Below, piece by piece: positions 4,742 to 55,908 of a stretch of 64,000 bases of DNA (the stretch's first letter is position 1; each line of letters starts with the position of its first letter). A model generated the notes under the pieces. That model made no database searches. It was given only the letters and a program-made list of their open reading frames with translations, and had not been told where the DNA came from. The position numbers and the translations under genes are program-made. The stretch comes from an archaeon (GTDB lineage: Archaea > Nanobdellota > Nanobdellia > Pacearchaeales > UBA284). The stretch covers positions 583,712 through 647,711 of the forward strand of contig CP070794.1 of NCBI GenBank assembly GCA_020343435.1, given 5' to 3'.

Positions 4742-5605
4742 ATGAGCGATGTAATAACATACCAACGTGCTAACTTCGATGAAGCTGCTATGAATGAATT
4801 ATGTGATGCAGTACACTCTCCCTCTTCACTCGATTTGACATTTACAGAAGGTGCTACAGAGGCCACAGCAATAATGGAAAGATTAAAGAAAGCTAGATTA
4901 ATCAGCGAAGGATCTCATTTACAATTGGGAACCAAGAGGATTACTTATGACCCTGATTCAAGAGTATTAAGTATTTCTTCAGTTCCTTTACAGTTTCCTT
5001 CATATGGTAAAGGAAGTTTGATGGAAGCAATTGGAGCTAGAGAAGAGAAAGAAGATTTAGTTGGTCCATTAACTAGTGTTTTTGTACATGTTCATGATGG
5101 AGAACTCTATTCAATGCAGATAAGAGGGGGTAACATTGGTGCTCCAGGAAAATTACAAATTCCAGCAGGATTCTGTGTCTATGATGTTCATCCTGCAACA
5201 ACAGCACTTAATGAAGTTGCAGAAGAAGTTTTCAAAGTAGATGATGAAGAAGCAATAGCAAGGGCTATAGAACAACATAGATTAGAATACTCCTTACCAA
5301 GAAACCAATTTTTGGATATAGCTCCATTTGTCCATGGAAGCGGGATGATAGACCCTTTATTGTCTTATGTTGTAAGAGCAGATTTAAGTGAAACTGGTTC
5401 AGTCATAACAAGTACAGATGATCTCAAAAAATTCGAAGCAGGATTGCCTTCTGAAAGAGTTGGAGAAGCATATACTTTCAGAGTTCCTTTAGAAAAAACA
5501 AGAGAACTTTTGGAAAAATTAGAACCAAAGATGTATGGTCCTGTAAGAAGAACTGGAGAAAGATTCTTAGATTGGTTTAATAAAGAAAAAGGAACTAATT
5601 ACTAA
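4742..5605 (+). CDS. Hypothetical protein with a degenerate Nudix-like box
   Basis: The coding call is clear: a 287-aa ORF with its own promoter box. The segment 'GKLQIPAGFCVYDVHPATTALNEVAEEVF' lines up position by position with the Nudix box Gx5Ex7REUxEExGU, but several catalytic positions are replaced. Composition is richer in G/A/R/E and poorer in K/I than the neighbouring genes. Confidence 0.35.
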   Translation: MSDVITYQRANFDEAAMNELCDAVHSPSSLDLTFTEGATEATAIMERLKKARLISEGSHLQLGTKRITYDPDSRVLSISSVPLQFPSYGKGSLMEAIGAREEKEDLVGPLTSVFVHVHDGELYSMQIRGGNIGAPGKLQIPAGFCVYDVHPATTALNEVAEEVFKVDDEEAIARAIEQHRLEYSLPRNQFLDIAPFVHGSGMIDPLLSYVVRADLSETGSVITSTDDLKKFEAGLPSERVGEAYTFRVPLEKTRELLEKLEPKMYGPVRRTGERFLDWFNKEKGTNY

Positions 5606-6698
5606 TAACTTTTCTACACTCTTGAACAATCCCTTCACTAAATCTATCCCAACTTAATTTTTCCCTGACAAATTTCTTCCCTTTTTCAGCTATTTTCTTA
5701 TGTTTTTTAGAATTCTTATAAACATCTAAAATTGATTTAACAAAATCTTTAGTTACAGTTCCAACACCTTCTTTTCTGATCATTGGGGAAGCAGTCATCT
5801 CATCAGAAACAATTATGGGTAAAGAAGCGCAAAGAGCTTCAAAAGGAGCCAACCATCCCCCCTGTGCCTTAACAGGATGCAAAAGAACATCACATGAATT
5901 ATATAGCCCTCTAACTTTAGATCTATCTACATGGCCTGTAAAGCTAACAAATTTTTCTAATTTATTTTTCTTAATATAATCATCTAAAACAGATTTATCT
6001 TTGTCCTCTCCCCACCCAGCAAATATAATTTTTAATTTAGGAATCTTATCTTTAATTTTATTTAAAGTTTTCAGGGTTTCTATCTGATTCTTAAAAGGAT
6101 TTAACATTCCAACATGTAGAACTGTAAAATCCTTTGATTTTTTCTTTTTAATTCTTTTAGAAAAGAAAGGATAATCTATCCCATAAGGTGCTATTCTATT
6201 AGGATTTTTATCATAAATTTTCTTAAATCTTTTATAATTATATTCATCAGCAACAACCACTCTGTTAATTTTCTCCTTGGCCAAGCATTTACCTATTTTC
6301 AACAAAATAGAGTTCTTAATCCTTGAAAAAAGAGATTTGGCTAACTTCAATCTTAAAAAAACAGCAGGTTCATTACACATCCAAACAGAAGGTTTTTTAT
6401 TAAATAATAAAGAATATTCAGCAGGATAATTATGGATATTCAAAACATCATATTTATGAGAATTTTTCCTGACTCCTTTATTCAAAGCAAGGATCTCTCC
6501 AAAATCAAAAGGTAATCTATCTTTTTTTTCAACAATAATCTCAGTGTCATCTAAATCTTTCCTCATCTGATCAGGAATCTCTGTTGTTAATATACCATTC
6601 TTAATCCCTTTTTTTGTCATATAATTAGCTAGCCTAACAATAAGATGTTCAGCACCCCCATAAACATACATGCCAGAATGAACAATTAAGATTCTCAT
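5595..6698 (-). CDS. Glycosyltransferase family 1 (GT-B, GT4-like)
   Basis: The protein shows 'MRILIVHSGMYVYGGAEH' and a C-terminal 'GGWLAPFEALCASLPIIVSD' EX7E-type region. I moved the start to the internal ATG at 6698, which abuts the stop of the upstream gene; the track start at 6767 would overlap that gene by 68 nt. Confidence 0.8.
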   Translation of the reverse strand: MRILIVHSGMYVYGGAEHLIVRLANYMTKKGIKNGILTTEIPDQMRKDLDDTEIIVEKKDRLPFDFGEILALNKGVRKNSHKYDVLNIHNYPAEYSLLFNKKPSVWMCNEPAVFLRLKLAKSLFSRIKNSILLKIGKCLAKEKINRVVVADEYNYKRFKKIYDKNPNRIAPYGIDYPFFSKRIKKKKSKDFTVLHVGMLNPFKNQIETLKTLNKIKDKIPKLKIIFAGWGEDKDKSVLDDYIKKNKLEKFVSFTGHVDRSKVRGLYNSCDVLLHPVKAQGGWLAPFEALCASLPIIVSDEMTASPMIRKEGVGTVTKDFVKSILDVYKNSKKHKKIAEKGKKFVREKLSWDRFSEGIVQECRKVISN

Positions 6699-31341: not shown

Positions 31342-31735
31342 TCACTCCTGCAATTTTAGCTATAAATGGCCATCTATCTGTAACTTCTCTAGCTACAGGC
31401 CCTTTAGTTTGGGTTCCTTTAGGATTTCCTGCAGTATCTTTCAATAATACAACAGCATTACTCTCAAAACATATTCTTTCTCCTGTTAATCTCCTATATG
31501 GTTTCTTTTGTCTTACTACAACTGCCCAAAAAACCTGTTTTCTTACATCTTTATTCCCCTCTTTTACCGAAACCTTCACTAATGCACCAACACCACAAGC
31601 AATCTGTCTACCTTTTCTACTTTTTCCTTTTTTTACTGCTATGATCCTGGCTTTTTTTGCTCCGCTGTTATCAGCGACATCAACTGTTGCCCCCAGGTTC
31701 AAGCTTTTTATTATCCTTGCTTTTAACGCTTTCAT
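31334..31735 (-). CDS. rpl14: Ribosomal protein uL14
   Basis: It carries 'VDVADNSGAKKARIIAV'. Confidence 0.92.
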   Translation of the reverse strand: MKALKARIIKSLNLGATVDVADNSGAKKARIIAVKKGKSRKGRQIACGVGALVKVSVKEGNKDVRKQVFWAVVVRQKKPYRRLTGERICFESNAVVLLKDTAGNPKGTQTKGPVAREVTDRWPFIAKIAGVIV

Positions 31736-32043
31736 TTTATTTTTTCTGTTACAACAAAATGTACAATTTTGCTTAAAGGTCTACATTCTGTTATTTTTAT
31801 TATATTTCCCACTTTCAATTGCTTAAGCATACATTCTGGGATATGGGCATGTAATTTGGTTTTTGCTTTTGCATATCTATCATATTTTGGATAGTAAAGA
31901 GATCTTTCAAACCCTATTGCTGCCCTACTTCCAATAATCTTTATGATGTTTCCTTTGAATGTTCTCCCTCTTGCGCTAAGTTTGCCATGAAATGGGCAAT
32001 TTTTATCCCTACAAGGACTTTCTTTCTTTGTTTTCTTTTCCAT
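31732..32043 (-). CDS. rps17: Ribosomal protein uS17
   Basis: It carries 'CPFHGKLSARGRTFKGNIIK' and 'HIPECMLKQLKVGNIIKITECRPLSK'. Confidence 0.9.
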   Translation of the reverse strand: MEKKTKKESPCRDKNCPFHGKLSARGRTFKGNIIKIIGSRAAIGFERSLYYPKYDRYAKAKTKLHAHIPECMLKQLKVGNIIKITECRPLSKIVHFVVTEKIK

Positions 32044-32047
32044 TTTC

Positions 32048-32341
32048 TTATCTTTCTATGGTTTCCTTATTGAATCCAAGCTTTTGGAGTTTTTCTATCA
32101 CTTTCTTCACATGTTCTCCTTGTAACTCGATTCTCTTGTCTTTCACTGTTCCTCCACAGGCAAGCTCTTCTTTAAGTTGCTTTGCAACTTTTTTTGTATC
32201 CTGCGTTATTCCATCAATAATGGTTACTTTCTTTCTGTACTTTCTCTCTGCAACAGAAATTTTTATTTTCTGTTGGCTTTTTTCTAGTTCTCCACAAATG
32301 CAAGTTTCTTTCGGCAAACCACATTTAGGACATATATCCAT
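32048..32341 (-). CDS. Translation initiation factor SUI1 (aIF1)
   Basis: An N-terminal zinc knuckle 'CPKCGLPKETCIC' precedes the SUI1 fold ('KKVTIIDGI...LKEELACGGTVKD'). Confidence 0.85.
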   Translation of the reverse strand: MDICPKCGLPKETCICGELEKSQQKIKISVAERKYRKKVTIIDGITQDTKKVAKQLKEELACGGTVKDKRIELQGEHVKKVIEKLQKLGFNKETIER

Positions 32342-33796: not shown

Positions 33797-34183
33797 TTAT
33801 TTAACAGACAAGAAGGATGTACTTCTTGTAGCTCCAATACCTGGAGCACCGTGTTTAACTTGGCCTCTTGTTGGAACAAACTCTCCTAATCTATGTCCTA
33901 ACATTTGTTCAGATATTTTAACATCAACAAAACTTTTACCACTATGAACCTTGATAGTTAACCCAACCATTCTTGGGATGATTATAAGATCTCTTAAATG
34001 AGTTTTAATTGGTTTCTTCTTATCTATCTTCTTTTGAATTCTTTTTAGGAAATTCTCAAAAACATCAACATTTCTTATTAATGATCTTCTTTCTCTTGAT
34101 TTTAAGAGATTTGCAAATTCTCTTAAGTCCATTTTCTTTAATTCTTCAAGACTTTTTCCTCTGAATTTTATTTCTTTTGCCAT
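33797..34183 (-). CDS. rps19: Ribosomal protein uS19
   Basis: It carries '[31 protein letters not shown]'. Confidence 0.92.
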
Positions 34184-34184
34184 T

Positions 34185-34886
34185 TTACTTTTTCTTTCCA
34201 GTTTTTCTTGGTCTTAAATGACCAACTTTAGCTCCTGGAGGAGCATTTCTCTTTGCAATTTTACTTTTAATTCTTTTTCCTCTTCCTGAACCAAAAGGAT
34301 GATCGGTAGCATTCATCTTAACTGCAGAAGATCTTGGATAAACTCTTGCTCCAACAGACCTCATTTTATGATATCTACTTCCAGCTTTAACAAATGGTTT
34401 TTCTCTTCTTCCTGCACCAGCAATTGTTCCAACAGTTACTCTAATTTTTGGATTCATTTTCTTCTCTCTTTTTGAGGGCATTAAAACTGTTATTAAATTT
34501 TTATCTTTCTTTATGATTCTTGCAGCTATTCCACTTGTTCTTACTAACTTTCCGTTACTTCCTGGAAAAGATTCTATGTTAAAAACCATGGTTCCAATTG
34601 GAAGGTCTTTTAATTGAACAATATTCCCCCCCTCAGTTCCTTGTCCAATTATGATTTTTTGACCTTCTTGTAAATTTTGGGCAGCAATATTATAGTAAAC
34701 TTTTCCATTAAACATAATCTTAGCAATTGGGGCGCTATATCCTGTTATATTTATTAATTTTAACACTTCTGCAGAACCAGTTTTACCTAAATCAGGATAT
34801 TGTAATCCTATTCTGAATGATCTTTTCTTAGATCTATATCTTGAACTTCCTTTTCCTCGTGCTTGTTGTATGATCCTTTTTCCCAT
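34185..34886 (-). CDS. rpl2: Ribosomal protein uL2
   Basis: It carries '[16 protein letters not shown]'. Confidence 0.95.
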
Positions 34887-34888
34887 TT

Positions 34889-35134
34889 TTACATAATTCC
34901 GAGTTTAGTTGCAATCTCAATTGCTGGAGATCCTTTTTTTAGTTTGATCATTGCAATTTTTTTATTATCTTTGATGTAAGTATTCATACTTTCCACTTTT
35001 GATTTGAAAGTTTTTTCTAATTCTTCTTTAATCTCTTTCTTCTTAGCATTTCTTTTAACTACAAAAACGATTTTATTCTCCAATTCAATCATTCTCAATA
35101 CTTTTTCTGATGTTACAGGTTCTAACAATATCAT
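34889..35134 (-). CDS. rpl23: Ribosomal protein uL23
   Basis: The 81-aa protein carries 'VTSEKVLRMIELENKIVFVV'. Confidence 0.88.
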   Translation of the reverse strand: MILLEPVTSEKVLRMIELENKIVFVVKRNAKKKEIKEELEKTFKSKVESMNTYIKDNKKIAMIKLKKGSPAIEIATKLGIM

Positions 35135-35757
35135 TTTTTCAAATAGTCTGGAATTTGGAATTTATTAAACTCTTCAAATAAGTTTTTACCATACATTAAA
35201 CGAGAGAAACATTCTGCTTCAAGTTTAGCATCTTCCAATGCGTTGTGTGTTTTTCTTTTAGGATACTCAGACATCCCCACAAATTCTAATATGTGTCTTA
35301 ACCCCATATCTGTATAATCTTTATTAGTTAAAAATTTTCCATGAACTTCAAAATATTTCATTAGAGCCATTGTATCAATATCCATACATCTATGATAAAA
35401 TGGAACTTCCAAACCATATTTTTCAAATTTTGCCCAGAAGAAAGAATAATCAAACTGGGGATTTTGACAAACAAAGTTTTTTATTCTAACTGTTTTAATC
35501 CATTCCGCAAAATGTTCTAACATTTCTTTTTCAGATTGTTTTTTTGGGTCTCTCATCTCTTCTTCAGTCATCCCTAAAATTTCTGTGACTTTTCTAGGAT
35601 CAACTAAGTTGGTCTTGTTAAATATTCCGTCTTCATCGCTTAATCTCGCTTTTTCGCGAAAGATGTTTTTAGGATTCTCCAAATCAACAGCCCCTATTTC
35701 AAGGATTCCTGCTCTGTTATATCCTGTTCCACTTGTTTCAATATCTACACAAATCAT
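35131..35757 (-). CDS. DEDDh-type 3'-5' exonuclease (DnaQ/RNase T superfamily) embedded in the r-protein operon
   Basis: Exo I is 'VDIETSG...EIGAV', Exo II is 'QNPQFDYSFF' and Exo III is 'HNALEDAKLEAECF'. It has 4-nt ATGA overlaps with both uL4 (upstream) and uL23 (downstream). Confidence 0.8.
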   Translation of the reverse strand: MICVDIETSGTGYNRAGILEIGAVDLENPKNIFREKARLSDEDGIFNKTNLVDPRKVTEILGMTEEEMRDPKKQSEKEMLEHFAEWIKTVRIKNFVCQNPQFDYSFFWAKFEKYGLEVPFYHRCMDIDTMALMKYFEVHGKFLTNKDYTDMGLRHILEFVGMSEYPKRKTHNALEDAKLEAECFSRLMYGKNLFEEFNKFQIPDYLKK

Positions 35758-36542
35758 TTTTTCTCTTCCTTAATTTTATTTATTCTTTTATCTAAATCTT
35801 GAATAGCTTGTTCAGAATAAACTGTTAATCTTCCTGGAATTCCTCCTGAAGCAAGTTCTTTTACTGAAACTTTTCCAGCTTTTACAGTCTCAATTCCATA
35901 GTTATTTAGTTTATTTTTCTCATTATTTCCAGTTATTAATAATAAAGAATAACTTTTTTTGTATTTCCTTCCCCTCATCTTTCCTTTTCCAGGTCTTACT
36001 TTTCTAACTCTTTCTACTTTTATCTTAGTTAAATCTTCTAAAAATTTCTTTATCTCTTTATTCTTCTTTTTTAATTCATCAGAACTAATTACTAATGGCA
36101 AAACACAAGTTATTTTCTTCTTTTCATACTTCTTTTGAACACATTTTTTATCAGCAGTTGCAGCAATTGCGCATTTTAATGCCAATTCTTTTTCTTTTTT
36201 ATTTATCTTTAAGGATTTTCTTATTGCCTTTGGGGGGTGTGCCCTTCTTCCACCAACAACACCTGGAATAAATGTTCCAATCCAGTAATACTGTTCTCCT
36301 CTCTTAATTATGAACTTTCTAGGAATTCTTGAAACTCCTCTTCCAGCTAATGTTTTCCATTTTCCTCTTCTATGTCTTTGTTTTCCTGCAGAAGATTGTT
36401 TTCCTGCTAAGATATATGCTCCATAAGGTTGGTGTTTTAAACTTGAAACATAAGCTCTAAAGATAAGATCATCTCTAATTTTTTGTTCAAAAAACTTAGG
36501 CAATGCAATTTCTTTATTTCCTGGATTTATTTTAGCTTTCAT
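35754..36542 (-). CDS. rpl4: Ribosomal protein uL4
   Basis: It carries 'AGKQRHRRGKWKTLAGRGVSRIPR'. Confidence 0.92.
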   Translation of the reverse strand: MKAKINPGNKEIALPKFFEQKIRDDLIFRAYVSSLKHQPYGAYILAGKQSSAGKQRHRRGKWKTLAGRGVSRIPRKFIIKRGEQYYWIGTFIPGVVGGRRAHPPKAIRKSLKINKKEKELALKCAIAATADKKCVQKKYEKKKITCVLPLVISSDELKKKNKEIKKFLEDLTKIKVERVRKVRPGKGKMRGRKYKKSYSLLLITGNNEKNKLNNYGIETVKAGKVSVKELASGGIPGRLTVYSEQAIQDLDKRINKIKEEKK

Positions 36543-37522
36543 TGTAGTATTTTAACAATCTCAAAATTTTTCTTTTTAGTTTTCTTAGATTCCCTTAGTG
36601 GATAAGTAAATATAATTGGTCGTTTAACAGAGCCTTGGACAGAACCTCTAATCAAAAGATATGTTGTATTAACGTTCCCATAACCTTTGAATCCTTTAAC
36701 ATTCTTATGTAACTCTTCTCCTAATCCAAAATCTAATATTTTTTTATTATAAGATTGTCTTGTGAACATTCCTAATTGTCCTGCTTGTGGAGCTCTGAAA
36801 GTTACTCTTGAAGGATTCCATGGAGCAAGACTCCCTGGTCTTCTTCTCCCTTTTTCAGATTTGTGATCTTTTAATCCAATTCCAAATCTTTTTACTGGTC
36901 CTACAAACCCTTTTCCTTTAGTTAAAGCTTTAACATCTACCAAAGATCCTTTTTCAAAGAAGTTTCTAAATTCTAATTCTTTTCCTAGATTAGCTTTAAC
37001 AAATTCAAACTTTTCTTTTATTGATCCTCCTAATCCTATTTCTGCAAAATCAGGAGTTTTCTTCTTTTTAGTTTTCTTAGCAACAGTATGAATAATTATT
37101 CTAAGATCATCAAACTCTTCTAATCTTTTTTCAAAATCATCTAATTTTTTGCCTTCTTTTTTCTTAGGAACTTTTAATTTCTTTTTTAATTCTTTATCTA
37201 AGTTTGGGGCTAAAACTTCAGTAGAAACATTAAAACCTTTATCATCTTTTTTATAAAATCTCACAGAAATAATTTTTATTGGAGGAACTTCAACAACTGT
37301 GGTGGGGATAATAATCTGTCTATTTTTTGTTAAAGAATCAGCAGTTAAATCACGAGCAAGAACTCTTAACATACCGACACGATAACCAACAAATCCCAAA
37401 AGTTTTTTATCAGAATGTTTTTGTTCTAAGGGAATCCAGTTCACGCTAGGTAAAAGTTTAGAAGCTCTTTTTCTTGGCCAAATCTGCAAACTTCCTGCTC
37501 TTGGCTTGTGTATCTTTCCCAT
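36539..37522 (-). CDS. rpl3: Ribosomal protein uL3
   Basis: It carries 'HKPRAGSLQIWPRKRA' and 'TKGKGFVGPVKRFG'. It is the first gene of the operon. Confidence 0.95.
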   Translation of the reverse strand: MGKIHKPRAGSLQIWPRKRASKLLPSVNWIPLEQKHSDKKLLGFVGYRVGMLRVLARDLTADSLTKNRQIIIPTTVVEVPPIKIISVRFYKKDDKGFNVSTEVLAPNLDKELKKKLKVPKKKEGKKLDDFEKRLEEFDDLRIIIHTVAKKTKKKKTPDFAEIGLGGSIKEKFEFVKANLGKELEFRNFFEKGSLVDVKALTKGKGFVGPVKRFGIGLKDHKSEKGRRRPGSLAPWNPSRVTFRAPQAGQLGMFTRQSYNKKILDFGLGEELHKNVKGFKGYGNVNTTYLLIRGSVQGSVKRPIIFTYPLRESKKTKKKNFEIVKILQ

Positions 37523-37615: not shown

Positions 37616-38194
37616 TTAACTAGAAATCTTCAGAAATTCTTCTAAAAGTACTGGTAATTCTTTAGTTCCAACTTCTTCATTAAAGTGACCTCCCCCATGT
37701 TTTATGATTACTTTGGCCCCTAATTTTTCTTTGAAAAGTTCAGAATCTGAGAGGGGAATGTAAGGATCATCATCCGAGAAAATACATATAATCTTTTGAG
37801 TATGTTTTAGGACCTTTTCAAAACCTATTGGAGTTTCCAACCATGGCCTGGCGATTTCTTCATAACCTTCTTCCTCAAAAGAAGCTTCAGTTAAATTAAA
37901 CCATGGCGCTACAAAAACACAACCACCAATCCTAATATCTTCAGAAAGTTTTTCTAGAAATCTTAAAACTGTTTGACATCCTATTGAATGCGCAATAAAA
38001 TAAGTGTTCTTATCAGGAGTTCCAACAACTTCTTCTAATTTAGATAACCAAGCTTCAATTACAGGTTCATCAGTCTCTGGCATTTCTGGCACAGTAACTT
38101 CAAATCCTTTAGATTCTAGTTCTTTTTTTATCCAAGGCAACCATTCTGTTTCTGGAGTCCCTTCCCAACCATGAATCACAATAACTTTTTTCAT
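37616..38194 (-). CDS. Alpha/beta-fold serine hydrolase (YdeN/RBBP9-like)
   Basis: It carries 'VIVIHGWEGTPE', a nucleophile elbow 'AHSIGC' and a C-terminal 'GGHFN'. Confidence 0.65.
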   Translation of the reverse strand: MKKVIVIHGWEGTPETEWLPWIKKELESKGFEVTVPEMPETDEPVIEAWLSKLEEVVGTPDKNTYFIAHSIGCQTVLRFLEKLSEDIRIGGCVFVAPWFNLTEASFEEEGYEEIARPWLETPIGFEKVLKHTQKIICIFSDDDPYIPLSDSELFKEKLGAKVIIKHGGGHFNEEVGTKELPVLLEEFLKISS

Positions 38195-38195
38195 T

Positions 38196-38855
38196 TTAAG
38201 CTACAAAATCAGATTCTTTATCTGATTTTTTACCATCAATTTCAAGTTTTCTGATAATTTTTCCTTTTCTTTTTGCTAGAATTCTTATTTTAGCAAAATC
38301 TTTTTCCCCTTTTGGCATAATAATCTCTGTTATTTCAAATGTATGTCTTGACTTTGCTTTTTTAAAATCGAGAATATCCCAAAAGAAAACCCGTTTCGCT
38401 TTATCTTTATATTTTAAGTCAAGATCTAAAACAGAGAAATTTTCTCCCAATTCATCTTTTCCTGGTTTGGGTAATCGTTGTCCAATCTTTAGTTTAATAC
38501 CCTCTGCCTCACAATTTAATAGAGGAAAATAACATTTTTCAAGAATATCTTTAATTTCTTTACTACTTAATTCTTTATCTAAAGAATATTCATAAACCCT
38601 CCCTTTTTTCTCATTTTCTAAATTAAGTTTATTCCTTGATAAAACCTTCCCTTTAACTTTAACTTTATCAACCAAATCAATAATAAATTCAATTAAATCG
38701 AAAGTCATATCAAAACTAGTGACAAGTCTAACTTTGGAAGGAGTTATTCTCATTGTAACAATTGCTCTACCATTAAAAGTCCCCTTTCCAAATTTAGTAA
38801 ACTGATTATGCACAGATTCATCAACCCTATTTTCAAATATTTTTTTGATAAACAT
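38196..38855 (-). CDS. Hypothetical protein
   Basis: The protein is 219 aa counted from ATG 38855 (MFIKKIFENR). The first 14 codons of the track ORF overlap the tRNA-Val gene and are discarded. I recognise no family motif. Confidence 0.5.
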   Translation of the reverse strand: MFIKKIFENRVDESVHNQFTKFGKGTFNGRAIVTMRITPSKVRLVTSFDMTFDLIEFIIDLVDKVKVKGKVLSRNKLNLENEKKGRVYEYSLDKELSSKEIKDILEKCYFPLLNCEAEGIKLKIGQRLPKPGKDELGENFSVLDLDLKYKDKAKRVFFWDILDFKKAKSRHTFEITEIIMPKGEKDFAKIRILAKRKGKIIRKLEIDGKKSDKESDFVA

Positions 38856-38863
38856 CTTCCTAA

Positions 38864-38936
38864 TGGGCCTGGCTGGGATTGAACCAGCGACCTCCACCTT
38901 GTAAGGGTGGCGTCATAACCACTAGACCACAGGCCC
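38864..38936 (-). tRNA. tRNA-Val (anticodon UAC)
   Basis: Hand-folded cloverleaf: GGGCCTG/CAGGCCC acceptor, anticodon arm CCACC-CTTACAA-GGTGG and T-arm GCTGG-TTCAATC-CCAGC. It is 73 nt with no encoded CCA and no intron. Confidence 0.9.
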
Positions 38937-38967: not shown

Positions 38968-38988
38968 GCTTTCTTGCTCTTTTCAACC

Positions 38989-40818
38989 ATGCCAAAATCA
39001 AAGAAACAGGACATTCCAAATAATGCTTATAATGGAGTTATTCCCCAAAAAGCCCCAAATTTAAAGGACTTAGAACAACAAATTCCAGAAGAAGTTAAGA
39101 AAGAAATAGAAAAAACAAGGCAAAAATTACAACAAGTTAAAAAACAACTACTCAAAAAATTCTCTTATATTGATACTGTGAGTATTCTTCCTCCATGGGC
39201 TGCTAGAGACATTGAAGAAGATGAAAACATAGTAAAAGAAAATCCTAAAGAAAATTATGTTCATTTACTAATTCTTTTACCAGATGATAAATTTAAAGAA
39301 ATTAACAATGTTAAAGCAGAAGCTATAAAACTTGTTAAAGATTTTGCCCCAAAGATATGGGTTTCTGTAAGAACTCGTGCAAGTGTTTGGGATTGTTGTT
39401 TAGATGGAAAATACCCTTTAGTTGATGGTATTGCTTTATCTTTCCCTTTACATGATAAAGAAGGATTTTTAGCATCATTGAGATTAGCAACAATTCATAA
39501 AAGAATGTGTTTAGGTAAGTTTGAGAGATATGTAACAAGTTATGTTATTGCAGGATCTCTTGTAAGAGGAAATGCTAAGAAAACATCTGATGTTGATGTC
39601 TATATTGTTATTGATGATACTGATGTTAAAAGAATGTCTCGTTATGAACTAAGAGATAAATTAAGAGCAATTATCTGGAATTATGCTATCCAAGCTGGAG
39701 AAGAAGCTGGAATTAAAAACAAACTTAATGTTCAGATCTATATTTTAACTGATTTTTGGGAAGCTGTAAAAGATGCTCACCCAGTTATATTTACATTAAT
39801 CAGAGACGGAGTTCCACTTTTTGATAAAGGAGCATTCATGCCTTGGAAATTATTATTAAAGATGGGAAAAATTAAACCATCTCCTGAAGCAATTGATCTT
39901 TTCATGAGTATGGGTGAAAAAGTTTCTGAAAATGTTAAAAGAAAATTAACAGATATAGTATTAGAAGATATTTGGTGGGGAGTAATAACCCCAAGCCAAG
40001 CTGTTTTAATGTTATATGGGCTAGCTCCACCAACACACAAGGAAACTGCAAAAGTGATGAGAGATGTTTTAGTAAAAAAAGAAAAGTTACTAGAGGAAAA
40101 ATATGTTAAAATTTTAGAAAAAATTGTTAAAACTTACTCTACATATGAACACGATTTTGCTTATAGAGTCACAGGAAAACAAATTGATGAATTCTTAGCA
40201 GATGTTACAGATTATATTGCTAGATTAAAAAAATTAATGAAACAAATTGAAGAAAAAATAGCTGATAAAAATGTTAAAGAACAATTCAAACAAGTTTTAG
40301 ATTTAATTACCCATATAACTGGAAAAGTCCCTAAAACCAAAATAGCAGAGAAATTCAAAAAAGAATTAATAGATAAGAAAAAGATTGCACCAAGAAATCT
40401 AAGATTATTGCAAGAAATCAACGAAGTTGTTAAGAAAAGTATTGCTAAAAAAGCAACCAAACATGATTTAGCAAGATTAAGAAGATCAACTTATGAATTA
40501 TCTTCAGCATTATTAGAATATATTCAAAGAAAGGAGCATCTTGCTGTTCAAAAAAGTAAAACAGATATTGTTTATATCACAAAAGTAAATGGAAAGAATG
40601 TTAAAAAACAAGGACAATTATTTATATTCGACAAAGCAGCTTTTGTAATCCCCGATATTAATCAAAGCGAAATTAAAAAAATCGTTGGAAAATCAGTCAC
40701 AAACTCTGATCAAACAGAACTTAAGAAATATCTGGCAAAACCAACTTACAAAAAGATAACTCCAGAGTTGATTTCTGCTCTCAAAAACCTTTTTAAAGAG
40801 TTCGAGATTATCTTCTAA
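38989..40818 (+). CDS. Large Pol-beta-superfamily nucleotidyltransferase-domain protein with helical (HEPN-like) C-terminal region
   Basis: 'AGSLVRGNAKKTSDVDVYIVIDD' is the GS-x10-DxD NTase signature. Long helical/coiled-coil regions follow. The start is set at ATG 38989 (MPKSKKQ), not the non-ATG track start. Confidence 0.55.
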   Translation: MPKSKKQDIPNNAYNGVIPQKAPNLKDLEQQIPEEVKKEIEKTRQKLQQVKKQLLKKFSYIDTVSILPPWAARDIEEDENIVKENPKENYVHLLILLPDDKFKEINNVKAEAIKLVKDFAPKIWVSVRTRASVWDCCLDGKYPLVDGIALSFPLHDKEGFLASLRLATIHKRMCLGKFERYVTSYVIAGSLVRGNAKKTSDVDVYIVIDDTDVKRMSRYELRDKLRAIIWNYAIQAGEEAGIKNKLNVQIYILTDFWEAVKDAHPVIFTLIRDGVPLFDKGAFMPWKLLLKMGKIKPSPEAIDLFMSMGEKVSENVKRKLTDIVLEDIWWGVITPSQAVLMLYGLAPPTHKETAKVMRDVLVKKEKLLEEKYVKILEKIVKTYSTYEHDFAYRVTGKQIDEFLADVTDYIARLKKLMKQIEEKIADKNVKEQFKQVLDLITHITGKVPKTKIAEKFKKELIDKKKIAPRNLRLLQEINEVVKKSIAKKATKHDLARLRRSTYELSSALLEYIQRKEHLAVQKSKTDIVYITKVNGKNVKKQGQLFIFDKAAFVIPDINQSEIKKIVGKSVTNSDQTELKKYLAKPTYKKITPELISALKNLFKEFEIIF

Positions 40819-40819
40819 A

Positions 40820-41074
40820 ATGAAAGGAATAGTTAGATCTTTTAGATCAGGAAAAAAAACACAAAAGCCTAGGCACTTTATTATAGAGGTAGAAAGCGTA
40901 AAAGATTTGAAAAAAGCAAAGACTTTTGTGGGCAAAGAAGTAACTTGGAAATCTCCAAAAGGAAAGGAGATCAAAGGAAAGATCACATCTACCCATGGTC
41001 AATTTAAATTAAGAGCTGTTTTTAATCCTGGATTACCAGGGCAAGCAATAAACACAACTGTTGAAATAAAATGA
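40820..41074 (+). CDS. rpl35ae: Ribosomal protein eL33 (L35Ae)
   Basis: The 84-aa protein carries 'GKEVTWKSPKGKEIKGKITSTHG...RAVFNPGLPGQA', matching the L35Ae pattern. Confidence 0.8.
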   Translation: MKGIVRSFRSGKKTQKPRHFIIEVESVKDLKKAKTFVGKEVTWKSPKGKEIKGKITSTHGQFKLRAVFNPGLPGQAINTTVEIK

Positions 41075-41724
41075 AAATAAAACTATTAGTCCAAGCAGGA
41101 GCAATGAAACCAGGTCCAGCTCTAAGTCAAAAACTGGGTCCTTTGGGAGTAAATATGGGGAAAGTAATCTCCCAAGTTAATGCTGCAACTAAAGATAACA
41201 AAGGAATGAAAGTTCCTGTAATCCTTAATATTGATGGAAAAACCAAAAGTATCTCAACAGAGGTTTTAACACCTCCAGCAGCTGAATTATTGAAAAAAGA
41301 AATTGGAATCAAAAAAGCTTCTCCATTAGCTAGAAAATTAAAAGTAGCTAATATCCCCCTAGAAATGGTGATTAAAGTAGCTAAAATCAAAGAGAAAGAT
41401 ATGTTAGTTCATGGTTTAAAATCTGCTGTTAAAACTGTTCTAGGATCATGTGTTGCTTTGGGAGCATTAGTAGAAAGCAAAGAACCTTCTGAGATCATGG
41501 GAGAAGTTGATCAAGGAAAATTTGATGATATAATCAATAAAGGGTCTGAACAAGCTTCTCCTGAAAAGCTTAAGAAATTAGCTGAAGATTTTGAAGAAGT
41601 TAAGAAAGAACAAGTAAAAATAGAGAAAGAGATAGCTGAAAAGAAAGCTAAAGCAGAAGAAGCAAAAGCAGCTGGCTCAGAACCAGCAGCTGAAAAAAAA
41701 GAGGAGCCGAAACCTTCTAAATAA
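41071..41724 (+). CDS. rpl11: Ribosomal protein uL11 with about 60-aa charged C-terminal extension
   Basis: It carries 'VQAGAMKPGPALSQKLGPLGVNMGKV'. The extension is '...KEQVKIEKEIAEKKAKAEEAKAAGSEPAAEKKEEPKPSK'. Confidence 0.88.
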   Translation: MKIKLLVQAGAMKPGPALSQKLGPLGVNMGKVISQVNAATKDNKGMKVPVILNIDGKTKSISTEVLTPPAAELLKKEIGIKKASPLARKLKVANIPLEMVIKVAKIKEKDMLVHGLKSAVKTVLGSCVALGALVESKEPSEIMGEVDQGKFDDIINKGSEQASPEKLKKLAEDFEEVKKEQVKIEKEIAEKKAKAEEAKAAGSEPAAEKKEEPKPSK

Positions 41725-41757: not shown

Positions 41758-41832
41758 GGGGCTGTGGTGTAGCTTGGTCTAGCATTTAAGGTTTGGGACC
41801 TTACGACCCCGGTTCAAATCCGGGCAGCCCCA
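41758..41832 (+). tRNA. tRNA-Pro (anticodon UGG)
   Basis: Hand-folded: GGGGCTG/CAGCCCC acceptor, anticodon arm TAAGG-TTTGGGA-CCTTA and T-arm CCCGG-TTCAAAT-CCGGG. It is 75 nt with no CCA. Confidence 0.9.
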
Positions 41833-41841
41833 TGTTGAAAA

Positions 41842-42453
41842 ATGCCAGTATTAATCAATTTCAAGATTTGCGATAATGCAAAAGAATGTGGAGGAATCAC
41901 AGCTTGCAAAAGCGGAGCTATCTACTGGGACAAGGAAAAGAAAACAATTGCTATAGATAACTCAAAATGCACCGGATGTGGTGAATGTGTTAAAGAATGC
42001 CCTGTTGGAGCTATTAGATTAGCTAAAACAGATGAAGAATATGAAAGAATTAAGAAAGAAATAGAAGAAGATCCAAGAAAAACATCTGACTTATTTGTAG
42101 ATAGATATGGAGCACAACCAATTCACGATTACTACTTAACAACTAGTGAGAATTTTGATTCTGAAGTTGTACAATCAAATAAACTAACCGTGGCAGAATT
42201 ATTCAACGATGATTCTATACAATGTTTATTAGACTCAATTCCAATCAAAGATCTATTTGAAGGAATAGATATTAAGTACAAAAAAGTAGAATTAAAAGAT
42301 AATTCTTTGCTAGAAAAATATGAAATTAAAGAACTTCCATCCCTATTATTTTTCAAAGATGGCAAGCTCTTAGGCAGAATAGAAGGGTACAAAGAAACTA
42401 AAGATAAAGAGGCTGTTAAACAAGAAATCAAGGAAATTACATCTAAATCCTAA
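41842..42453 (+). CDS. 4Fe-4S ferredoxin-domain / thioredoxin-fold fusion protein
   Basis: The N-terminus has 'CTGCGECVKECPVGAI' plus additional Cys residues. The C-terminal 'ELPSLLFFKDGKLLGRIEG' is a thioredoxin-fold signature, but no CxxC is present. Confidence 0.55.
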   Translation: MPVLINFKICDNAKECGGITACKSGAIYWDKEKKTIAIDNSKCTGCGECVKECPVGAIRLAKTDEEYERIKKEIEEDPRKTSDLFVDRYGAQPIHDYYLTTSENFDSEVVQSNKLTVAELFNDDSIQCLLDSIPIKDLFEGIDIKYKKVELKDNSLLEKYEIKELPSLLFFKDGKLLGRIEGYKETKDKEAVKQEIKEITSKS

Positions 42454-55347: not shown

Positions 55348-55908
55348 ATGATTGAAAAAGAGCATACATTAAGAGTTCTAAAAAAGACAATCAAAACTTT
55401 GAAAGCAAGAGATATGACTATGTTAAGGACATTATCTAATCAAACAATTCACACAGCTTCTGTTTATCAAGATCCCGATGCAATTGCATTAGCTGTTACT
55501 ATTTATGCTTTAAGTAAGATTGTTGAAAGAGAAAATTACAGACATTATCCTGATTGGAAACCTTTCATAAAATCTTGTTTAAGTTATTTGGATAAAACAA
55601 TCACTTATCTGGAAAAAGGGGATATGAAAAGATTCAGGAATAATTTAATGGGCATTAGAGGAGAAATAGAAAATATTAGTTCTAAACTTAAAGAGTATAT
55701 CAAAGAAGTTTTTAGAAAAGCTGCTATTAGTAAAGCTTCTAGAATATATGAACATGGAATTTCAAGAGCAGAAACAGCAAAACTTCTAGGAATAACTCAA
55801 TGGGAATTAGCAGAATATGTTGGAAGAACTGGAATTGCAGATATTCGTCTAAGTGTCACAAGAACTGTTAGAGACAGAATTAAACTAGCACAATCTTTAT
55901 TCAAATGA
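55348..55908 (+). CDS. Hypothetical protein with C-terminal helix-turn-helix
   Basis: 'ISRAETAKLLGITQWELAEYVGR' is HTH-like. It has a 4-nt ATGA overlap with the downstream PIN-like gene. Confidence 0.45.
   Translation: MIEKEHTLRVLKKTIKTLKARDMTMLRTLSNQTIHTASVYQDPDAIALAVTIYALSKIVERENYRHYPDWKPFIKSCLSYLDKTITYLEKGDMKRFRNNLMGIRGEIENISSKLKEYIKEVFRKAAISKASRIYEHGISRAETAKLLGITQWELAEYVGRTGIADIRLSVTRTVRDRIKLAQSLFK

Follow-up and report, generated by a model that had tools for sequence, protein, structure and literature searches.

Why should a predicted exonuclease gene lie inside one of the most conserved gene strings of prokaryotes? The question is raised by a 64,000-nucleotide stretch of the archaeal contig CP070794.1 (assembly GCA_020343435.1, Pacearchaeales; positions 583,712 to 647,711 of the forward strand), called here the window, in which a gene for a DEDDh-type 3'–5' exonuclease is inserted in the ribosomal protein (r-protein) string uL3-uL4-uL23-uL2, between uL4 and uL23. 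An earlier examination of the letters alone, which we call the sequence-only reading, had proposed that the product is a ribosome-linked RNA exonuclease. In this work we find relatives of the gene at the same junction in dozens of species, and at several other junctions between translation genes. This repeated embedding of an exonuclease in translation operons is the unusual aspect of the locus, and it makes the protein a testable, still unproven candidate for RNA trimming in ribosome production.

The exonuclease gene (35131..35757, minus strand) starts with ATG and encodes a single-domain protein of 208 amino acids. It lies exactly between uL4 (35754..36542, 262 amino acids; Pfam Ribosomal_L4, 75.7 bits) upstream and uL23 (34889..35134, 81 amino acids; Ribosomal_L23, 44.7 bits) downstream, both also on the minus strand, as the open reading frames (ORFs) and the Pfam matches of the neighbours confirm. 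The 4-nucleotide ATGA overlaps reported on both sides can be read directly in the DNA: one joins the uL4 stop (TGA) to the exonuclease start (ATG) at 35754–35757, the other joins the exonuclease stop to the uL23 start at 35131–35134. The gene therefore has no room for a promoter or terminator of its own and, because there is no intergenic space and a check of the gene found no internal run of six or more T, it is probably co-transcribed with uL4 and uL23, as the sequence-only reading had supposed. Base composition does not clearly point to a recent foreign source: the GC content of the gene is 0.316, compared with 0.310 for the window, and its GC content at third codon positions (0.249) is the same as that of uL23, those of uL3, uL4 and uL2 being somewhat lower (about 0.16).

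Is the product an intact enzyme? The three expected motifs are all present, at the places previously assigned to them: Exo I, DIETSG (residues 5–10, 35728..35745), which carries the catalytic D5 and E7; Exo II, QNPQFDYSFF (residues 98–107, 35437..35466), which carries D103; and Exo III, HNALEDAKLEAE (residues 171–182, 35212..35247), which carries H171 and D176, all on the minus strand. Exo III has the form H-x4-D (HNALED), with a His rather than a Tyr, which assigns the protein to the DEDDh subtype. In a HMMER alignment with the Thermotoga PolC exonuclease 2p1j (E=1e-5), the motifs fall on its D-x-E, D and H-x4-D positions, and all 34 aligned family members (49–67% identity) have the same five catalytic residues, and also C97 and E175. 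The catalytic motifs thus survive proper alignment. The profile search is in agreement, as Pfam RNase_T (PF00929) matches residues 2–183 over model positions 1–163 of 164 with 46 bits, against a cutoff of 24. An AlphaFold2 model computed with the family alignment has a pLDDT of 94.7 and a pTM of 0.90; Foldseek found 127 PDB matches for it at E<=1e-3, and the 50 matches listed are all DEDDh enzymes. The best are Cap18 (7t2s), Cas2-fused DnaQ (8h18, 8fyc), RNase T, ERI3/ERI1 and the PolC exonuclease, followed lower down by TREX-like proteins, ExoI and Orn, all with template modelling (TM) scores of 0.5–0.75 and 15–27% identity.

The fold does not tell which of these enzymes the protein resembles in function. 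With the exonuclease domains of DnaQ and PolC it shares the Exo I, II and III motifs, 25–27% identity (2p1j) and NCBIfam E-values of about 1e-10 (PRK05711, TIGR01406, PRK00448), but it falls short of every equivalog cutoff by a factor of 5 to 25 (for DnaQ, PRK05711 39.7 versus 196 and TIGR01406 35.2 versus 222.7), it has neither a polymerase-binding tail nor a fused polymerase, and its family is found next to translation or GINS genes rather than polymerase genes. Archaea, moreover, do not use Pol III. With RNase T (Escherichia coli rnt; 3nh1, 2is3) it shares the organization of a stand-alone DEDDh protein of about 200 amino acids (Foldseek E about 2e-7, TMq 0.60–0.67). RNase T is an obligate homodimer that carries out the final 3' trimming of 5S and 23S rRNA and of tRNA; it is a bacterial enzyme, only 16–19% identical to the window protein and encoded outside r-protein operons. 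Because single-stranded DNA is degraded by RNase T as well, this likeness does not settle the substrate. ERI1/3'hExo and ERI3 (1w0h, 2xri, 7k05) have the same fold (Foldseek E 1e-6 to 6e-6, TMq about 0.62), and ERI1, which associates with ribosomes and trims the 3' end of 5.8S rRNA, would be the closest functional analogy in the archaeal-eukaryotic lineage. Unlike ERI1, which has an additional SAP domain, the window protein has none, and at 15–17% identity common descent is evident only at the level of the superfamily. The protein also passes the cutoff of the Rv2179c/RNase AS-like family (PF16473; 40.8 versus 27 bits), small dimeric 3'–5' exoribonucleases, but this score, over the same stretch, is lower than that of the generic RNase_T model, and no RNase AS structure is among the 50 Foldseek matches listed. 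Finally, Cap18, which is CBASS-associated, and the Cas2-fused DEDDh/DnaQ proteins have a similar compact core (E about 1e-8, TMt 0.75, 22–26% identity), but they belong to DNA-acting defence systems, and no defence gene adjoins the exonuclease in any relative locus inspected. Assignment to a characterized subfamily was rejected, since the RNase T (TIGR01298, 22.9 bits versus a cutoff of 246.2), DnaQ, PolC exonuclease and Orn (NF003765, 19.8 versus 106) equivalogs are all far from their cutoffs and no neighbour exceeds a TM of about 0.75 among the Foldseek matches listed. As judged from its sequence and its predicted structure, the window protein is an intact DEDDh exonuclease, in fold and active site, that stands outside all characterized subfamilies; it is equally far in sequence and in fold from RNase T, ERI1, DnaQ/PolC exonucleases and Cap18, and neither property tells an RNA from a DNA preference.

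The protein belongs to a sizeable family. A word-indexed search returned 526 full-length homologues at about 45–66% identity; those that are named are '3'-5' exonucleases' of Nanoarchaeota, Pacearchaeota or Woesearchaeota, one entry being identical to the window protein, and public annotations go no further than '3'-5' exonuclease' or 'DNA polymerase III epsilon-like'. When 1.84 billion cluster representatives were searched exhaustively with a profile, 141 clusters (at 50% identity) reached E<=1e-30 and 453 reached E<=1e-10; with few exceptions they are single-domain proteins of about 200 amino acids. By these searches the family appears to be confined to DPANN archaea of the Pacearchaeota/Woesearchaeota type, as a lineage-specific subfamily of a well-known superfamily. 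One member at 52% identity is on a contig labelled 'Patescibacteria group bacterium' (JAKLDG010000001.1, locus L004); the contig may be mislabelled; if not, the family has crossed into bacteria of the candidate phyla radiation. The searchable literature yielded no previous description of the family or of the position of its gene in operons, and of the papers retrieved on DPANN, Woesearchaeota and Pacearchaeota one set does not mention 'DEDDh' and the other does not mention 'exonuclease'. The fused members are informative. Two of them (P0121 and P0136) are tandem-duplicated exonucleases in which one copy has lost catalytic residues. Such pseudo-dimers suggest that the normal family enzyme is a homodimer, in line with RNase T, Orn and TREX and in contrast to the monomeric proofreaders bound to polymerases. 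In a third (P0189) the exonuclease is fused to a PemK/MazF-like domain at its C-terminus; MazF toxins are endoribonucleases, and we count this fusion in favour of an RNA substrate.

How often does the gene occupy this position? A GTDB scan with one genome per species found relatives in 209 genomes. The counts below refer to the best 80 loci, which were selected for carrying the exonuclease; contexts were assigned by tblastn with the window r-proteins and a panel of neighbour proteins. The exonuclease is between uL4 and uL23 in 38 of the 80 genomes (36 clean cases, L063, which contains an extra ORF, and L066, which is cut by the contig end). The ATGA overlap is kept with uL4 in about 35 of these 38 loci and with uL23 in about 31, and the arrangement recurs down to 42% protein identity. 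Both of the closest homologues of the window protein (66% and 62% identity) are in the order uL4-exonuclease-uL23 with 4-nucleotide overlaps. This synteny survey shows that the insertion is not unique to the window genome. The extra ORF of L063 (4205–5710, 501 amino acids), located between the exonuclease and uL23, has a lipoprotein-like N-terminus.

The other placements are varied. The exonuclease is directly upstream of Gins51, on the same strand and often with a 4-nucleotide overlap, in 23 of the 80 genomes (Pfam Gins51_C, 37.8 bits versus 27). It is between S27e and aIF2alpha in three (L013, L028 and L037), with a gene for a GAN/Cdc45-like DHH protein just before; between eL32 and eL19 in one (L076); after a small helix–turn–helix (HTH) protein and before a cytidylyltransferase/cysteine desulfurase in six; next to ScpB and/or TFS in four; and between a LigD 3'-phosphoesterase and a family-4-like uracil-DNA glycosylase in one (L004). 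A few of the 80 are singletons. In addition, L060 has two exonuclease copies in a single ribosomal superoperon (545–1186 and 5001–5606), at uL4/uL23 and at uS17/uL14, and in the metagenomic locus L165 (57% identity) the gene is between aIF2alpha and Nop10, with 4-nucleotide overlaps on both sides. Thus five of about 12 distinct neighbourhood classes have translation genes on both sides: uL4/uL23, uS17/uL14, eL32/eL19, S27e/aIF2alpha and aIF2alpha/Nop10. If about 8% of junctions are assumed to be flanked by translation genes (about 700 genes, of which about 60 are clustered r-protein genes), a binomial estimate gives such an outcome a probability of roughly 0.002, a value that depends on the assumed 8%. 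Repeated and different placements are stronger evidence than a single inherited synteny, and they are the main reason why we favour a link with translation.

Non-r-protein genes are not foreign to r-protein operons: Rpp29, SUI1, SecY and Adk are found there in archaea, and rnpA follows rpmH in bacteria. The exonuclease gene resembles these residents as an RNA-processing or housekeeping gene co-transcribed with r-proteins, and the RNA-processing genes among them, Rpp29 and rnpA, are a precedent in favour of an RNA-related function. In contrast with all these placements, which are ancient and near-universal in their domains, the exonuclease insert is limited to one DPANN radiation, uses several junctions and has often been lost or moved.

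What could an exonuclease do in such a position? We tentatively favour the idea that it is a growth-coupled enzyme that trims the 3' ends of stable RNAs, a proposal to which we give a little less than an even chance. The gene would be transcribed within a polycistronic uL3-uL4-exonuclease-uL23-uL2 mRNA. Ribosomes ending uL4 would reinitiate at the overlapping AUG of the exonuclease, and then again at that of uL23, so that exonuclease production would follow r-protein production. The enzyme, presumably a stand-alone two-metal-ion DEDDh homodimer, would act in the 3'-to-5' direction on 3' extensions of rRNA precursors or of other stable RNAs, or on spacer debris, in parallel with RNase T in bacteria and ERI1/Rex in eukaryotes. 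The two halves of the original proposal thus fare differently: the link with translation is strengthened by the relatives found at four other translation junctions, while the RNA substrate is not, given that the best matches are DNA proofreaders and that the structural neighbours are mixed. It had also been suggested that the enzyme compensates for RNases lost from a reduced genome. This idea finds no support, as cluster-2 DPANN archaea, which include these lineages, are reported to keep Rrp4, Rrp41 and Rrp42 and to lack only Csl4 (PMC7414124). A stronger version of the RNA proposal is that this DPANN-specific family is a dedicated ribosome-biogenesis nuclease, which provides the missing 3'–5' trimming of archaeal rRNA precursors, and that its gene has been pulled repeatedly into translation operons, at no fewer than five junctions, by selection for stoichiometric co-production. 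For archaea, the exonucleases responsible for trimming rRNA 3' ends still await demonstration (PMC10515664). We regard this stronger version as doubtful.

Several observations, described here and in the following paragraphs with the alternatives to which they lend weight, count against an RNA-trimming role. Structural neighbours with TM scores of 0.6–0.75 are a mixture of DNases and RNases, and the best sequence matches are the proofreading domains of DnaQ and PolC (the top NCBIfam matches, and 2p1j in the PDB). None of the six tRNA genes of the window encodes CCA, and hence nothing suggests that an RNase T-like enzyme is required for tRNA end repair. The tight coupling to the replisome gene Gins51 in 23 of 80 genomes, and the position of the L004 gene between two repair genes, also weigh against an RNA-trimming enzyme. 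These contexts and the DnaQ-like similarity point to the main rival explanation, in which the protein is a DNA exonuclease of replication or repair, a trans-acting proofreader or a 3'-end nuclease working with the CMG helicase or with polymerases, and its position in ribosomal operons only reflects the archaeal mixing of replication and translation genes. This explanation also accounts for the GAN/Cdc45-like DHH protein that L013, L037 and L165 encode one or two genes upstream, and the presence of the DNA-acting Cas2-fused DnaQ and Cap18 among the top structural matches is in its favour.

The Gins51 contexts are, however, ambiguous. The archaeal L44E-S27E-aIF2alpha-Nop10 cluster is 'almost systematically contiguous' to PCNA-PriS-Gins15 (Gins15 being Gins51), and PCNA associates with TFS in archaea (Berthon et al., 2008; PMC2643942). 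The Gins51, S27e/aIF2alpha, aIF2alpha/Nop10 and TFS contexts therefore belong to one known replication-translation neighbourhood, and adjacency to Gins51, which itself classically adjoins translation genes, is no clean pointer to replication. It is difficult to see why a replisome accessory should be expressed in step with r-proteins, and five separate placements are between pairs of translation genes. The DnaQ and PolC models all remain far below their cutoffs, the tandem-fused pseudo-dimers argue against a monomeric, polymerase-bound epsilon-like subunit, and archaeal PolB and PolD have proofreading activities of their own. On balance we consider a replication or repair function possible but unlikely. 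In the window itself, a profile hidden Markov model built from 21 Gins51 neighbours found no match over the 64 kb, and an ORF first taken for Gins51 (55348–55908; tblastn E 0.023) was rejected, its only Pfam match being a sub-threshold UPF0175.

Could the enzyme be less specialized? It is small, stand-alone and acidic (isoelectric point 5.66; family median 5.83), and its 208 amino acids contain no additional domain and no recognizable RNA- or ribosome-binding extension, features that do not speak for a ribosomal task and that fit an Orn-like or nanoRNase-like scavenger. Such an enzyme would finish RNA and DNA breakdown for nucleotide salvage in an auxotrophic symbiont, its operon being chosen for expression level or growth coupling only. 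DPANN archaea generally lack nucleotide synthesis, Orn is a dimer as this enzyme probably is, and the varied 'housekeeping' contexts, with glycolytic genes upstream (ApgM, His_Phos) or an HTH/IscS neighbourhood, are consistent with a general function. Nevertheless, the score with the Orn model is far below its cutoff, Orn (2igi) ranks only 50th among the structural matches, and this explanation leaves aside why, among highly expressed operons, the gene should concentrate in those for translation and replication. We judge it rather improbable.

The last alternative is that the position has no functional meaning, the exonuclease being a mobile housekeeping gene that drifts in and out of a permissive operon in compact, rearrangement-prone genomes. 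The overlaps do not argue otherwise: ATGA is the default packing in this genome, found in 14 of 52 same-strand neighbour pairs of the window and at 10 of the 23 junctions within its r-protein operon, which indicates that the exonuclease gene is integrated like a native operon member and does not imply an exceptional coupling. The insertion is also labile. As a control for sampling bias, we took the 80 metagenomic loci closest to the window uL2, of which 61 cover the uL4/uL23 junction: uL4 and uL23 are directly adjacent in 50, the exonuclease is present in seven, plus one partial case (about 12%), and another gap of 270–330 nucleotides is found in four. Operons with and without the insert are interleaved in a tree of concatenated uL3, uL4 and uL2 (73 operons) and in the exonuclease tree. 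Fitch parsimony requires 16 state changes (14–19 over 100 bootstraps), compared with 20–30 when the states are shuffled. The distribution of the insert thus has phylogenetic signal, but the insert has been gained, lost or moved many times. The interleaving in both trees and the 14–19 changes lead us to reject a single ancient insertion that would define one clade.

The window illustrates this lability: in all of 100 bootstraps, no other member of its clade bears the insert. The insert-free clade contains the nearest relatives of its uL2, its uL23 and both halves of its uL4, whereas the exonucleases nearest to its own are from L001 and L002, which are in another clade. There is therefore no sign of a recombination tract, nor support for the idea that homologous recombination brought in the insert along with its r-protein flanks. 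Either the insert was gained in the lineage of the window, or it was lost in the sampled relatives.

The operon is permissive as well. The sequence-only reading had started from the strong conservation of the uL3-uL4-uL23-uL2 string, but in these lineages the string is not inviolable: the uL3-uS19 blocks of relatives contain many other same-strand ORFs of 59–200 amino acids, at uL3/uL4, uL23/uL2 and uL2/uS19. Since these operons tolerate unrelated small inserts, position is weaker evidence of function here than elsewhere. On the other hand, these inserts are sporadic and mostly unrelated by BLAST, in clusters of one to three loci, whereas the exonuclease recurs at one junction in dozens of species, across a wide range of divergence, and enters several different translation junctions; the number of changes on the tree is also below that obtained with shuffled states. 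We therefore think it quite improbable that the position is meaningless, and RNA trimming tied to ribosome production is the proposal that we retain. Examples of the other inserts, from loci L009–L078, are L024 5864–6142, L047 5868–6245, L075 5936–6229, L078 6135–6440, and L043 1333–1707 and 3600–4187. Several share an N-terminal '..EGD/E + hydrophobic..' flavour, and those that do could be one fast-evolving small-protein family. The uL3-uS19 block of the window itself contains none of them.

The r-protein block of the window opens with uL3 (36539..37522; Ribosomal_L3, 200 bits), which also overlaps uL4 by ATGA, and continues after uL23 with uL2 (34185–34886; Ribosomal_L2_C, 113 bits) and uS19 (33797–34183), all on the minus strand. 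uS19 was identified by inspection of its translation, and a tblastn search with it gave matches in relatives right after uL2, where L164 has a Ribosomal_S19 Pfam match. SUI1 and SecY are in the operon too, labelled by eye, with tblastn matches at the same operon positions in L060 (SUI1) and L076 (SecY). The SUI1-like ORF (32048–32341) is directly followed by a uS17-like ORF (31732–32043), also labelled by eye. Many archaea have the Rpp29 gene, for a subunit of RNase P, between SUI1 and uS17; there is none between the two ORFs of the window, and RNase P RNA was not found in its 64 kb.

Upstream of uL3 and on the same strand are a gene for a Ser_hydrolase-family protein (37616–38194), directly adjacent, and a 233-amino-acid ORF with no Pfam match (38196–38897), whose true start is probably further in, because its 5' end overlaps tRNA-Val (38864–38936). 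Beyond this tRNA a divergent gene encodes a 614-amino-acid protein (38974–40818) with only a weak nucleotidyltransferase domain (NTP_transf_2/Pol-beta-like). The uL11 ORF (41071–41724) encodes 217 amino acids, of which the two uL11 domains end near residue 132, leaving a C-terminal extension of about 85 amino acids unmatched. At 41758–41848 ARAGORN predicts a tRNA-Pro on the plus strand and, overlapping it in antisense, a tRNA-Gln on the minus strand; the tRNA-Gln is probably spurious, because Rfam supports the plus-strand tRNA only.

What the locus means depends in part on the substrate. In any case, the uL3-uL4-uL23-uL2 string is much less rigid in Pacearchaeota and Woesearchaeota than usually assumed. 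If the enzyme is directed to DNA, its coupling to Gins51 would make it a new accessory nuclease in the neighbourhood of the archaeal replisome. If it acts on RNA, it would give a direct handle on ribosome maturation in genome-reduced archaea, and would show selection for co-expression breaking into some of the most conserved gene strings. We know of no archaeal DEDDh exonuclease with a defined role; should the family prove to be dedicated to ribosome biogenesis, it would be the first such enzyme with a defined function in RNA maturation, and a rare case of one gene repeatedly entering near-universal gene strings. For a large uncultivated radiation, the family provides a small and easily expressed candidate for the finishing of archaeal rRNA 3' ends.

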